A stretch of DNA of 55,284 nucleotides from Campylobacteraceae bacterium (GTDB lineage Bacteria; Campylobacterota; Campylobacteria; Campylobacterales; Campylobacteraceae), in the NCBI GenBank assembly GCA_031257555.1, contig JAIROK010000131.1:1-55284 (forward strand), given 5' to 3'. The notes under the pieces are model-generated. The model did not search any database and was not told where the DNA came from. It was given only the letters and a program-made list of their open reading frames with translations. Each line of letters opens with the position of its first letter. Position 1 is the first letter of the stretch. Shown piece by piece: positions 32,552 to 42,950 of the stretch. A program made the position numbers and the translations under genes.

Positions 32552-32834
32552 ATTGTATACCCTTCTGGTTTTAAAAATCCGATAATTATACTTAAGTTGT
32601 GCTTAAAAACTCTTGTATTTTGCGTAAATAGTGCATTATTTAATTAATAATAAGATATTTTTTATCCCATTGCTGCAAAAAGCAAATATTTCATTTTATT
32701 TTGCAATGCAAAGTATTTCTCAAGTCAACACAAACACCTCTTTTGCATCAGTGAAGTTTAAAATACTCAGCATGGCAAAACAAAATAGATATCCTCAAAT
32801 CTTAAAACAAACTAAGCAATTTTACCCGATTTCA

Positions 32835-34046
32835 TTATCTAATTTTAGAAAAGATGATAGCGCCGTTTGTGCCGCCAAATCCATAATTTGTTGTTAGTAC
32901 ATCGCGCAATTCTATCTTTCTGGCAATATTTGGCACATAATCCAAATCGCACTCCGAATCCGCTTCGCAGTAATTAATCGTCGGCGGAATAATATTTTGG
33001 TCTAATGCCATAATCGAAACAACTGCCTCTATAGCTCCGGTAGCGCCCAAACAGTGTCCGGTACTTCCTTTAATAGAGCTCACCGGAGGCACTTTGTCTC
33101 CAAAAGCCTTTTTTATAGCTCTTGTCTCATTTGCATCTCCTATAGGAGTGCTGGTGCCATGTGCGTTTATATAGTCAACACTTTCTAAGCCTGCCATTTT
33201 CAGTGCAGCTTGCATAGCTCTTACCGGACCATTCATATCCGGCGATGTTATATGTATAGCATCGGCACTCTCTCCAAAACCGGATATCTGAGCGTATATC
33301 TTAGCTCCTCTATTTACTGCGTGCTCATATGATTCAAGTATTAGTGCCGCCGCGCCTTCTCCCAATACAAAACCATCTCTGTTTTTATCAAAAGGTCTAG
33401 ATGCTGTTTTTGGGTCGTCATTTCTGGTTGAAAGCGCTTTGATTGTGCTAAATCCGCGCAATCCAAGTTCACATACAGTCGACTCACTGCCAACAGCAAC
33501 CATAACATCCGCACCACCAATCATTATGGTTTTTGCAGCTTGCGTAATAGCGTGCAGTCCTGCTGTGCATGCAGTAGTCGATGACAGATTTGGTCCTTTT
33601 AAATTAAAGTATATAGATGCGTAACCGGGTAGCATATTTGTAATTGTTCCTGGTATAAAGAATGGCGAAATCTTTTTATCATCAAAGTTTTTTTCCGCAT
33701 TCGTTTGAATCATAGGCAGTCCGCCTATGCCTGTAGCACCGCAAACTCCGATTCTATTGCAGTCAAACTCACTTGTGTTTAACTTAGCATCATTTAAGGC
33801 TTCTCTGATGGCATACAACCCTATATGAACAAATCTATCACATTTTTTGATATCTTTTGGATCCATTATAGATATTGGATCAAAACCTTTTATTTCACTT
33901 GCTATTTTTACGCTGTCTTTGCTCGCATCAAAATGCGTTATAAGATCCACTCCACTAATTCCATTCACCATAGCATTAAATGACTCTTTAGCGCTATTTC
34001 CTACGCCATTTATCATTCCAACTCCCGTTACTACGACTTTTTTCAT
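32835..34046 (-). CDS. fabF: beta-ketoacyl-ACP synthase II (FabF-type), probably a paralogue associated with the adjacent AT-rich cluster
   Basis: 403 aa with an intact Cys-His-His triad in canonical contexts (TACTAGLHAI, NAHGTSTPIGD, GSTGHCLGATG). Its G+C is like the host, and it lies 77 nt downstream of the FabZ-like gene on the same strand. Confidence 0.88.
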   Translation of the reverse strand: MKKVVVTGVGMINGVGNSAKESFNAMVNGISGVDLITHFDASKDSVKIASEIKGFDPISIMDPKDIKKCDRFVHIGLYAIREALNDAKLNTSEFDCNRIGVCGATGIGGLPMIQTNAEKNFDDKKISPFFIPGTITNMLPGYASIYFNLKGPNLSSTTACTAGLHAITQAAKTIMIGGADVMVAVGSESTVCELGLRGFSTIKALSTRNDDPKTASRPFDKNRDGFVLGEGAAALILESYEHAVNRGAKIYAQISGFGESADAIHITSPDMNGPVRAMQAALKMAGLESVDYINAHGTSTPIGDANETRAIKKAFGDKVPPVSSIKGSTGHCLGATGAIEAVVSIMALDQNIIPPTINYCEADSECDLDYVPNIARKIELRDVLTTNYGFGGTNGAIIFSKIR

Positions 34047-34123
34047 TTTATATTATACCTTTCTACTATTTTTTAACTATAAAAATTTATTTTGACACAA
34101 CTCGTATTTAATATTGCTTTTAA

Positions 34124-34561
34124 TCATTGCTTAAATGACACAATTAATTCTACTTCGGTAACAACATAATTGTCTACAAAAGCTTCTCCTCTAATTTTCC
34201 ATACATTCATATATTTTTCAATCAACATTACCTTGTATTTCAATTTATCTCCCGTAACAACATGTTTTCTAAATTTTGCTTTGTCTATTTTTAAAAGATA
34301 TATTTCTTTATCAATATTATTAATTTCATTTTCTAAACTATAAAAAATAAATATACCACTAGCCTGAGCCAATCCTTCAACGATTAAAACATCTGGATAT
34401 ATTGATTTTTTCTGAAAATATCCTTGAAATATTTCTTCATTTATAGTTATATTTTTATAGCATTTCAAAAAAATATTTTTTTGGATCTCAGTAACTCTAT
34501 CTACAAGTAAAAAAGGATATCTATGTGGTAAAACTTTTCTTATATCACTTATGTCCAACAT
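34124..34561 (-). CDS. FabZ-like hotdog-fold protein with catalytic His replaced by Tyr
   Basis: 145 aa with LPHRYPFLLVDRV and NEEIFQGYFQKKSIYPDVLIVEGLAQASG. This aligns with E. coli FabZ [29 protein letters not shown]. His54 becomes Tyr48 (codon 34418-34420), while the Glu of IVEG is retained. Confidence 0.8.
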   Translation of the reverse strand: MLDISDIRKVLPHRYPFLLVDRVTEIQKNIFLKCYKNITINEEIFQGYFQKKSIYPDVLIVEGLAQASGIFIFYSLENEINNIDKEIYLLKIDKAKFRKHVVTGDKLKYKVMLIEKYMNVWKIRGEAFVDNYVVTEVELIVSFKQ

Positions 34562-41397: not shown

Positions 41398-42285
41398 TTA
41401 ATTTACCTTTTTTATTTTTTTATTATAGTATTCAGAAAATTCATAAAATAAATCTCGCTTAGAAATTGGTAATTCACCAAAAATCTGAATTAAAGTTTCA
41501 TATTTGTCTTCTAAAACTTTTTTATATGTACTTGTTGTAAAAAACCTTGATACATCATTTGCGCCTTGAACAAAGTAATTACTAACTTCGGCCTGGTGAA
41601 TAAAATGGCTACTTATCACCGCATCTGTAAAATTTTTCCTATGAACATCTTTTGACTTAACCATTCTTGAAATTATTTTTATCCAAGCAGCTTTATGTTT
41701 TATTTCATCTTTTTTAATATTGATTATTATTTTTCTAAAATTATTACTTTCAATATGGCTTTCTATACTGCTATATAATTCAATATTAGTGATTTCACCC
41801 AAGAGATAAGACAGTAGTGATTCGTATGCGTTTTTGTAAAGAGTATTAGTTTCATACATTAGTTCATACAAATGATTGCCTGTTGCATTTTCTATGAAAC
41901 TTTTACCATTTTTTACCAAACTCGCTAATTCTTTTAAGATAAATCCATGTCTCATCTCTTCGTAAGTAATAGTACAGAAACCATATAAATTACTTTCATA
42001 AAAATCACATCCAAGCTCTTTTGGAAGTTTGCGAACTAAATCTTGATGTTGTATCGTAATTCCTATAGCAGAAAGCTCTCCATCTCCAATGCTATCAATC
42101 AATCTAACGATTTCTAGATCATTGTCCGTCAAATTATTTACTATGTCAACATAATCATAATTATTAACATCCCACTTATGATCACCAAGTTTTAGCGACT
42201 TTAATATGTCATATACGCCATGCACTTTTATCTCCTTAATTTTTATTAAACATTCAATTTTTGCTCTTATGGCTACAAAAAACAT
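41398..42285 (-). CDS. ferritin-like di-iron carboxylate protein (putative acyl-ACP desaturase/oxygenase-type enzyme)
   Basis: In 295-aa ORF numbering the ligand pattern is E70 ... E110-x2-H113 (YEEMRH, nt 41947-41961) ... E164 ... E194-x2-H197 (KDEIKH), the classical E/EXXH/E/EXXH pattern. The true start is probably GTG 42225 (AAGGAG 6 nt upstream), because ATG 42285 has no RBS. Confidence 0.55.
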   Translation of the reverse strand: MFFVAIRAKIECLIKIKEIKVHGVYDILKSLKLGDHKWDVNNYDYVDIVNNLTDNDLEIVRLIDSIGDGELSAIGITIQHQDLVRKLPKELGCDFYESNLYGFCTITYEEMRHGFILKELASLVKNGKSFIENATGNHLYELMYETNTLYKNAYESLLSYLLGEITNIELYSSIESHIESNNFRKIIINIKKDEIKHKAAWIKIISRMVKSKDVHRKNFTDAVISSHFIHQAEVSNYFVQGANDVSRFFTTSTYKKVLEDKYETLIQIFGELPISKRDLFYEFSEYYNKKIKKVN

Positions 42286-42353
42286 TGATTGAATTTTATT
42301 TAATTATAGATTTGTCATGTGAAACTAAACTCTTTAAAAATAAAATGATGTAT

Positions 42354-42366
42354 TATATATATATAT
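42354..42366. repeat. (TA)6 tract upstream of the di-iron/ACP/KS operon
   Basis: Read directly as tatatatatatat at 42354-42366, inside the 665-nt non-coding region. Confidence 0.85.
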
Positions 42367-42950
42367 TTATTATCAATTAATTAATTTTATTTGAGTCATA
42401 AATTTCATTAGTAAAAATTAAGTTTAACTATTATTTTTGAAGATTTTTATGAGTTCTATATTGTTTGTTATTGGAAGAATGAATCTGTTATTTTTACTAG
42501 AGTTAATAATGCAATGCATATATTTTATACTGCTAACTTATTGTAATTACAGCAATAACAATAGTACCATGTCGTGTAATTTCAATTTGCGATAACAAAA
42601 TCAAAAAATTTATAATTTTAAATTTTAAAACATTTCATATCACCCATATTTCGCTTACAATAATAAAGAAGAAAAATTGCAATAACAGACGATTGTGTTT
42701 ACAGAAATAAAAAATTTCAATTTATAGTTGAAAATTTGAAGTTTAGGAGTGCTACGTGTTATAAACTAACTATTTGTCTACACTTTGTCTATAATAAGCA
42801 AAAACAATTATTGCAGCATCTCCATAGAAAGCAGATTGTTTTGCTATATCTACAATGGTAAAAGATTTAACAGATTGTTCTTACTCTACTTATTAAAACC
42901 CACAATGACACATTGCCGTGCAAGATATAGAGATAAAAACTTATCTAAAG

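Follow-up and report, generated by a model that had tools for sequence, protein, structure and literature searches.

The question raised by the locus described here is what a compact set of genes resembling those of type II fatty acid synthesis (FAS), accompanied by a di-iron carboxylate protein and three flavodoxin-fold proteins, is doing between two housekeeping genes of a Campylobacteraceae bacterium, and how it came to be there. The locus is found in a stretch of 55,284 nucleotides (contig JAIROK010000131.1 of assembly GCA_031257555.1, positions 1 to 55,284; in the following, the window), where the genes form an island between pyrH and the gene of an M23 peptidase. The island is a horizontally acquired accessory insertion. 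As to its function, it is suggested here, with moderate confidence, that it is an operon that builds an acyl chain on its own acyl carrier protein (ACP) and modifies it oxidatively, beside the FAS of the host.

The insertion and its boundaries

Proteins encoded in the flanks point to an uncultured 'Campylobacteraceae bacterium' as the source. That the island is an insertion is seen directly in relatives that do not carry it. Three related Campylobacteraceae lineages of metagenome-assembled genomes (MAGs; L118, L115/116/117 and L024/025), recovered via their PyrH proteins, share the gene order fn3-trmB-ftsE-ftsX-M23 followed by pyrH-rpoZ-spoT-tyrS-NMO-amidase, with flanks that are 80-90% identical to those of the window, and in all of them M23 and pyrH are separated by 58-160 nt, with no island. 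In blastn comparison with L118, the closest lineage, positions 25690-32628 and 42951-50303 of the window are collinear at ~90% identity, and the stretch between the two blocks has no match; the same outcome is obtained with L115 and L024. As collinearity with L118 breaks exactly there, the insert comprises positions 32629-42950 (10,322 nt), which replace the 58 nt M23-pyrH spacer of L118. According to the junction alignment, it runs from just after the M23 stop codon to ~75 nt upstream of pyrH, with no target duplication. The conserved right flank, pyrH (31829-32551, minus strand), has a Pfam AA_kinase domain and relatives named UMP kinase; the conserved left flank, the M23 peptidase gene (42951-44135, minus strand; PF01551), is collinear with the relatives. 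A chimeric assembly is unlikely to account for the island, because the flanks are perfectly syntenic and both breakpoints fall in a single intergenic spacer.

An earlier interpretation of the window, made from its letters alone (in the following, the sequence-only reading), had taken pyrH to adjoin the M23 gene in C. jejuni and had proposed an insertion into a conserved housekeeping block. Tested on closer relatives, the adjacency holds, M23 adjoining pyrH in L118, L115-117 and L024/25, and the empty sites of the three lineages show the insertion itself. Its further proposal of horizontal acquisition is upheld by these sites together with the occurrence of the same gene set elsewhere, at ~70% nucleotide identity and in unrelated context; far from occupying the same position with host-like composition in all relatives, the cluster is absent from the three lineages.

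Composition also sets the island apart. The window as a whole has 32.6% G+C; the figure is 26.2% for positions 34124-42285, the lowest-GC 8-kb stretch anywhere in the window, versus 33.8% for all of the window outside 34047-42950, and G+C at third codon positions (GC3) is 13-25% in island genes against 24-32% in spoT, rpoZ, pyrH, M23, ftsX, ftsE and trmB. The AT-richness first estimated by hand counts is borne out by these calculations, and the steps in composition fall where they had been placed, at 34047-34123 (77 nt) and 42286-42950 (665 nt). On the pyrH side, the edge of the insert is not the composition step at 34047-34123 but the end of collinearity at ~32629, and therefore the FabF paralogue (32835-34046, minus strand), which the sequence-only reading had set after the cluster as a gene of normal G+C content, lies inside the insert and is the terminal gene of the island. 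Its identity (TIGR03150, 536 bits versus a cutoff of 494; Cys-His-His intact) and G+C content (40.8%) are as had been described, and it is 76% identical to the FabF ending the cluster of the closest relative, L001. Strand and spacing of the twelve minus-strand open reading frames (ORFs) reported in 34124-42285 also stand, and their number is corrected, since 11 real ORFs lie there and the twelfth is the FabF paralogue. In the ORF map the genes overlap or are at most 20 nt apart, as had been noted, the sole exception being a 231-nt gap at 39746-39976.

The longest ORF of the first gene, which encodes the di-iron protein, comprises 295 codons and reaches 42285; its start is most likely the GTG at 42225, judging from the AAGGAG that precedes it and from the resulting length of 275 aa, which matches that of homologues and of one database copy. 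The upstream non-coding stretch is, therefore, 725 nt long (42226-42950, minus strand; 22.9% G+C); it starts right after the M23 stop codon and presumably contains the operon's promoter region. This leader was found to have no credible ORF and no RNA family, repeat or remnant of a gene, and a promoter scan of it was uninformative, the DNA being too AT-rich; when the island and its non-coding stretches were searched for Rfam families, tRNAs, repeats, promoters and terminators, no signal exceeded chance. The idea that the leader contains a TetR pseudogene was rejected, its sole match having 31% identity, crossing a stop codon and lying in low-complexity sequence. Neither tRNA nor integrase, transposase or flanking repeat was found in the island by Pfam/NCBIfam, Rfam, tRNA and repeat scans, in agreement with what had been noticed by eye. 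Thus, among the features by which genomic islands are recognized, presence/absence polymorphism and deviating composition are found, whereas an integrase, tRNA or direct repeats are not seen with the island in the window.

The di-iron protein, its carrier protein and the phage-type synthase

The first gene of the operon (41398-42225, minus strand) is predicted to encode a ferritin-like di-iron carboxylate protein with two ExxH motifs. Its relatives are few: 24 were retrieved by a word-indexed search, and a profile search of 1.84 billion representatives gave 26 clusters at 50% identity. Across 26 divergent members, among them a phage copy and the protein of locus L120 (see below), E50, E90xxH93, E144 and E174xxH177 are invariant. 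When the 26 members are scanned singly, PF03405 is the commonest weak match (21/26, best E 8e-7) and Rubrerythrin is matched by 19; the L120 protein reaches 19.2 bits on PF03405, versus a cutoff of 22.7, and the window protein has no match to this family at E <= 0.1. Sequence searches with the di-iron protein gave a weak encapsulated-ferritin match only in PDB, none among GenBank phages and none in PHROG. With the AlphaFold2 (AF2) model of the protein (pLDDT 84), Foldseek retrieves aldehyde-deformylating oxygenase (ADO), PaaA, R2lox and stearoyl-ACP desaturase, the last with TM 0.5-0.55 and E ~3e-2 and ranked after ADO and PaaA; these fold neighbours all act on acyl chains or acyl-thioesters. 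Among viral structures, the model matches only ribonucleotide reductase R2, and weakly.

Taken together, sequence and model suggest that the di-iron protein is a remote relative of the soluble acyl-ACP desaturases, not assignable to PF03405. With PF03405, ADO, R2lox, PaaA and BioE, its best neighbours in sequence and fold, it shares the ligands E, ExxH, E, ExxH of what would be a four-helix-bundle di-iron site; soluble acyl-ACP desaturases and similar enzymes need an external electron donor, and the di-iron gene here adjoins that of an ACP. It differs from the soluble acyl-ACP desaturases in being shorter (275 aa), in remaining below every Pfam threshold and in forming a distinct and tiny family. 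BioE, a ferritin-like di-iron oxygenase that acts on acyl-ACP with E/ExxH/E/ExxH ligands and needs an external redox system (PMC12915131), offers a precedent for enzymes of this kind working on ACP-bound substrates; it is compared here through its published ligand set, and no bio genes adjoin the island.

The next gene encodes a dedicated ACP (41100-41396, minus strand; 98 aa, LDSFD site), which matches TIGR00517 weakly and is homologous to a phage ACP-like family where LDSLD is invariant (E 3e-13). In the cluster loci compared, the ACP gene is always directly upstream of that of a divergent, 'phage-type' β-ketoacyl synthase (KS; in the window 39977-41110, minus strand). This protein is a KS but not a FabF, because it has both Pfam KS domains above cutoff (PF00109, 31.6 bits; PF02801, 48.9 bits) and an intact and invariant Cys135/His277/His311 triad, and is far under all NCBIfam FabF/FabB equivalog cutoffs. 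An exact-protein look-up of the window KS found no entry, no plasmid homologue was found, and its detectable relatives among 5.8 billion proteins number 187.

The nearest of these relatives (80% identity) lies on contigs L001/L002, where all island genes are found in the same order at ~70% nucleotide identity to the window, in a neighbourhood with TOBE/OprD/SBP genes on one side and a TetR gene and a response regulator on the other. The G+C content of the L001 cluster is 10 points lower than that of its flanks (35% versus 45%), with FabF again the terminal and most GC-rich gene; it contains two additional genes, namely that of a metallo-β-lactamase-fold (MBL) hydrolase between KS and the first flavodoxin-fold gene (Fld1), and that of a FAD-binding oxidoreductase between dehydratase and FabF. 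A minimal cluster is found in a Sulfurovum MAG (L033), in which a TetR gene stands beside diFe-ACP-KS-MBL-KR-TE (diFe, di-iron gene; KR, ketoreductase; TE, thioesterase); in L031 the same core is accompanied by two flavodoxin-fold genes and by FabF, with a PIN gene upstream and, a few genes downstream, a phage-type integrase. The L119 variant (7823-15616) consists of ligase-ACP-KS-MBL-amine oxidase-KAS III-KR-TetR without a di-iron gene, and therefore the ACP-KS-MBL unit recombines with varying tailoring sets. In L120 (3399-9906), the order is MlaA-MlaC-MMPL-diFe-ACP-KS-ferredoxin (2x[4Fe-4S]), which connects the diFe-ACP-KS triad with lipid transport at the outer membrane as well as with an electron carrier dedicated to it. 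In a Sulfurovaceae MAG (L003/L005, ~1-21100), an ACP-KS-TE trio with a KS 76% identical to that of the window lies inside a large aryl-polyene/flexirubin-like cluster, which also encodes an aromatic ammonia lyase, several KSs and ACPs, LpxL-like and other acyltransferases, an ABC exporter, an O-methyltransferase and KAS III. The triad genes are adjacent in the window, L001/2, L006/7, L031, L033, L120 and an L026-type phage. On the basis of gene content across the variant clusters, the constant element is ACP-KS, in most cases preceded by the di-iron gene and followed by KR and TE, the remainder being accessory.

KS relatives at 33-45% identity sit in phage genomes. That of L026/027 encodes portal, capsid protein and lysin along with a di-iron homologue (30% identity, E 3e-39). 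A KS relative is also present in the phage genomes L028/029 and GenBank MW202545, at least 561 viral contigs with one were found by scanning IMG/VR, and several KS relatives listed as 'MAG' have the same phage neighbours. Within the phage loci examined (L026-L030 and L035-L114, from IMG/VR and other viral contigs), the order in 84 is virion structural protein, small ORF, ACP-like, KS, a ~150-aa family and large proteins, the ACP-KS genes lying within the virion-structural/ejection gene block; in the viral contigs the KS gene nearly always comes after that of the ACP-like protein and before that of the ~150-aa family. The KS and ACP families are labelled 'unknown function' in PHROGs. The ~150-aa protein has the motif GNT.F / N.D and no Pfam, PHROG or PDB match, and it is not a hot-dog dehydratase. 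In the L026 lineage, characterized by a SU10-type portal and a GH108 lysin, the di-iron homologue (L026:8922-9746; also in L027, L035 and L036) is found just upstream of ACP-KS, and then comes a cupin gene. In a neighbour-joining tree of the KS rooted on FabF, which is indicative only, 20 Campylobacterota sequences form one clade with the di-iron-bearing phage lineage as its sister, both within a phage-dominated family. The relatives found are, thus, Campylobacterota and phages, and not the low-GC anaerobes among which a search had been suggested; for a Burkholderiales locus (L009), simple ORF listing was uninformative, the DNA being too GC-rich.

No description of the phage KS/ACP modules or of the Sulfurovum clusters was found in the open-access literature, an absence that is no proof of novelty. 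Tentatively, the di-iron/ACP/KS triad might be seen as a mobile lipid-modification module, phage-derived or phage-shared, that Campylobacterota have built into TetR-controlled envelope-lipid clusters; hundreds of uncultured phages would have an ACP of their own and an active KS within the structural block. The di-iron protein would then found a new class of acyl-ACP oxygenases/desaturases, and the flavodoxin-fold proteins would either be reductases dedicated to it or represent a novel type of enoyl reductase.

The remaining genes and the proposed pathway

Beyond the 231-nt gap, three flavodoxin-fold proteins are encoded. The first, the FMN protein Fld1 (38975-39745, minus strand; 256 aa), has a C-terminal helical extension, scores 49.8 bits on PF03358 (cutoff 24) and contains a CX2CX2CX7C motif that is invariant in 8/8 relatives, its subfamily consisting of nine proteins. 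Its predicted FMN_red domain and compact four-Cys motif fit the iron-sulfur-flavoprotein-like type, and the motif presumably resembles that of Isf. The nearest solved sequence is that of the flavone ene-reductase FLR, an enzyme needing an external reductant, and the likeness covers the N-terminal FMN domain only (phmmer residues 13-104); when the AF2 model is used with Foldseek, azoreductases and quinone reductases are ranked first and FLR 33rd. A role of Fld1 as an FLR-like ene-reductase appears unlikely because the FLR match leaves out the catalytic C-terminal tail and because of this rank by fold. One metagenomic relative of Fld1 (P0192, 376 aa) has an SCP2 sterol/lipid-carrier domain at its N-terminus (PF02036, 31.9 bits), a fusion which hints that the subfamily acts on or beside hydrophobic lipid substrates. 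Fld2 (38417-38965, minus strand; 182 aa; PF03358 27.7 bits) is 62% identical to its L001 orthologue and has a degenerate phosphate-binding SPK motif; the third protein (37690-38436, minus strand; 248 aa) scores 23.1 bits on PF03358, just below the cutoff, and is 58% identical to its L001 orthologue. The FMN_red fold is common to the island proteins and to Isf, AzoR, WrbA/NQO and FLR, from which they differ in that Fld2 is without the phosphate-binding motif and the Fld1 subfamily has no characterized member.

The other genes, all on the minus strand, are of more familiar types. A FabG-type 3-oxoacyl-ACP reductase (36944-37693; NF004199, 335.9 bits versus a cutoff of 301) is followed by a YbgC/FadM-type hot-dog thioesterase (36539-36925; TIGR00051, 86.8 bits versus 68.7; PF03061), by a small membrane protein for which hydropathy indicates three to four hydrophobic segments (36108-36536; L001 orthologue 57% identical; no Pfam or PHROG match), by a FadD-type acyl-AMP/CoA ligase (34561-36111; 516 aa; PF00501, 265 bits), whose best NCBIfam match is long-chain-fatty-acid--CoA ligase PRK06187 (444 bits versus a cutoff of 476), and by a FabZ-like dehydratase (34124-34561), which passes FabZ models and matches FabA/FabZ models only. 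The exchange of its catalytic His for Tyr, already recognized in the sequence-only reading, is evident on comparison with C. jejuni FabZ 3D6X (GYFQ...PDV in the window, GHFP...PGV in 3D6X); it is peculiar to the window copy, the L001 orthologue and two phage homologues retaining GHFP, and the gene has the highest rate of non-synonymous substitution (dN) within the cluster. Pfam and NCBIfam agree with the gene content as first listed, and also with the lack of fabD, fabH, fabI, acc and plsX among the 12 genes. The view that they form a dedicated pathway, not the housekeeping FAS, is supported by the absence of the island from relatives and by its rare di-iron/ACP/KS core; the term self-contained has to be given up, as malonyl transferase, a recognized enoyl reductase and phosphopantetheinyl transferase are all lacking from the island.

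From these parts we infer a substrate, an order of steps, an electron route and a product. A free fatty acid would be activated by the FadD-type ligase; the phage-type KS, followed by the FabF paralogue, would add malonyl units to the chain on the dedicated ACP, with malonyl loading and phosphopantetheinylation borrowed from the host; the FabG-type reductase would lead to a 3-hydroxyacyl intermediate; the di-iron enzyme, using O2 and two electrons, would introduce a double bond or a hydroxyl group into the ACP-bound chain; the electrons would come from the three flavodoxin-fold proteins, one of which has an Fe-S motif, unless these reduce an enoyl or quinone intermediate instead; and the YbgC-type thioesterase would free the product, probably a fatty acid, unsaturated or oxygenated (3-hydroxy), that becomes part of an envelope lipid or serves as a signal. 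Electron supply is assigned to the flavodoxin-fold genes because L120 has a ferredoxin in their place and because the Cys motif of Fld1 is invariant; a destination in membrane lipids is proposed because the triad is linked to Mla/MMPL genes in L120 and one Fld1 relative is fused to SCP2, and a signalling role is kept in view because TetR genes are frequent beside the cluster. Among the products originally envisaged (unsaturated, oxygenated or polyene-like), the first two are favoured and a polyene is the least favoured, since there is no pair of KS and chain-length factor (CLF), a single ACP is present and the dehydratase is without its catalytic His.

Several observations weigh against the pathway. 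No member of the di-iron family reaches the gathering score of any Pfam family, and the fold matches are weak (TM 0.4-0.55, E 5e-3 or worse); the flavodoxin-fold proteins resemble generic quinone reductases/azoreductases, their role as electron donors being read from context alone; and no enoyl reductase is recognizable among the 12 genes, so that chain length and saturation are not predictable. Furthermore, the window is without the intact MBL, FAD-oxidoreductase and TetR genes of its closest relative (L001); because of these losses and absences, and of the dehydratase without catalytic His, the cluster of the window may give a different or truncated product, or be decaying.

Competing explanations and significance

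It is unlikely that the cluster makes a small fatty-acid signal or antibiotic under TetR control, with the diFe/ACP/KS/MBL/KR/TE core subjecting an acyl chain of the host to a single round of condensation and reduction and the resulting modified 3-hydroxy or 3-keto acid being sensed by the cognate TetR. The minimal Sulfurovum cluster consists of exactly this core and a TetR gene, which also accompanies the cluster in L001, L031 and L119, besides L033; MBL-fold hydrolases can be thioesterases, and a weak GloB-type match agrees with such a function. However, a TetR gene is missing from the window, where the MBL gene is no longer intact, a TetR protein is a common cluster-side regulator and no demonstration of signalling, and in the L120 variant the link is with lipid transport.

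The fate of the MBL gene bears on another improbable explanation, namely that the window's copy is a decaying, non-functional remnant drifting to AT-richness after acquisition. Within the 231-nt gap, a 45-codon ORF (39843-39980, minus strand) overlaps the KS stop by 4 nt, as the intact MBL gene does in L031; its first ~30 residues align with the N-termini of the MBL proteins of L033, L031 and L119 (13/23 identical to L033), and it ends before the HxHxDH metal site. Judged from this alignment, the gap is the remnant of a deleted MBL-fold gene, which is present intact in L001, L031, L033 and L119. To this stump may be added the absence of the FAD-oxidoreductase and TetR genes of L001 (no FAD-oxidoreductase remnant was found in the window), the degenerate active-site loop of the fast-evolving dehydratase, and GC3 values down to 13%. 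On the other hand, all 12 ORFs are intact and tightly packed; KR, thioesterase and ligase score well on family models, and, the dehydratase aside, the enzymes retain their catalytic residues, including both KS triads, the ACP serine and the six di-iron ligands; minimal natural clusters are likewise without dehydratase and FAD enzyme. Compared with L002, dN is 0.14-0.38 (0.14-0.34 for genes other than the dehydratase), well under a synonymous rate (dS) that is saturated, and by this measure the cluster is under purifying selection.

Still less probable is an aryl-polyene/flexirubin-type pigment, produced by a KS, KR and dehydratase (DH) iterating in the manner of a type II polyketide synthase, without enoyl reduction, to give a polyene lipid. 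Aryl-polyene/flexirubin clusters likewise combine discrete KS, KR, DH, TE, ACP and an adenylating enzyme in a Gram-negative accessory cluster; the trio with the 76%-identical KS of L003/L005 lies in one of this kind, the L001 dehydratase has precomputed ApeI/ApeP-like matches, and no recognized enoyl reductase is found in the window. Against this stands the Cys-His-His of both window KSs, which leaves no chain-length factor and hence no KS/CLF pair, as well as the single ACP and the lack, by Pfam/NCBIfam, of a lyase or other aromatic starter genes, of acyl- and glycosyltransferases and of a LolA/MMPL exporter; the only dehydratase is without catalytic His and scores as FabZ, not ApeI/P, and the island contains, in addition, the di-iron enzyme and the flavodoxin-fold proteins. 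Finally, cleavage of a long-chain acyl-ACP by the di-iron enzyme to a dicarboxylate precursor, such as pimeloyl-ACP for biotin, is very improbable in spite of the ligand set and acyl-ACP substrate of the ferritin-like oxygenase BioE (PMC12915131), given that no bio genes are nearby, that the exhaustive hidden Markov model search gave 26 clusters only and no large Bacteroidota/Chlamydia family, and that the co-conserved KS, KR and TE have no part in that route.

An acyl-modifying operon thus remains the preferred explanation. The island would work like type II FAS with an extra desaturase-like step, and is neither housekeeping FAS nor an aryl-polyene cluster. It resembles the former in its ACP-based chemistry carried out by discrete proteins, of which FabF, FabG and the FabZ-like protein score at or close to the NCBIfam equivalog cutoffs; it differs in being accessory and absent from close relatives, in lacking FabD, FabH, enoyl reductase, Acc and PlsX, and in having an ACP and a KS of its own, both divergent, together with a putative di-iron oxygenase, the flavodoxin-fold proteins, a ligase and a thioesterase. 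No characterized homologue of the whole set was found.

Some other features of the window may be mentioned. The NMO gene of the pyrH flank (27085-28173, minus strand) encodes an NMO-family flavoprotein of 362 aa with a weak FabK match (118 bits versus a cutoff of 453), and its position is kept in all relatives. We take the NMO family to include the Helicobacter dehydrogenase/isomerase FabX, which makes unsaturated fatty acids; if the protein were of FabX type, the host would already have an O2-independent route. At the sole tRNA of the window (tRNA-Met, 50179-50255), collinearity stops at 50255 with L115 and L024 and at 50303 with L118, and the ~2 kb beyond it (50256-52472) either cannot be aligned or are 67-82% identical, so that a second variable spot is suspected here. 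Two ORFs of 680 and 397 aa at 22171-25403 (plus strand) would, judging from collinearity with L024, L115 and L118, be the two Capsule_synth (KpsC/KpsS-type) genes, and very large ORFs lie to their left at 8686-15202.

In Campylobacterota, whose secondary metabolism is little known, the envelope, stress tolerance and signalling are shaped by accessory lipid pathways. The island joins ordinary Fab paralogues to three uncharacterized parts, namely a rare di-iron family, a mostly phage-borne KS/ACP pair and an Fe-S flavodoxin-fold subfamily, and its natural presence/absence polymorphism provides built-in controls for lipidomics. If phages encode a working ACP-KS in their structural modules, this would be a new sort of virus-encoded lipid chemistry; and if the di-iron enzyme is an acyl-ACP desaturase/oxygenase, it would represent a new way, dependent on O2, in which microaerophiles make modified fatty acids.

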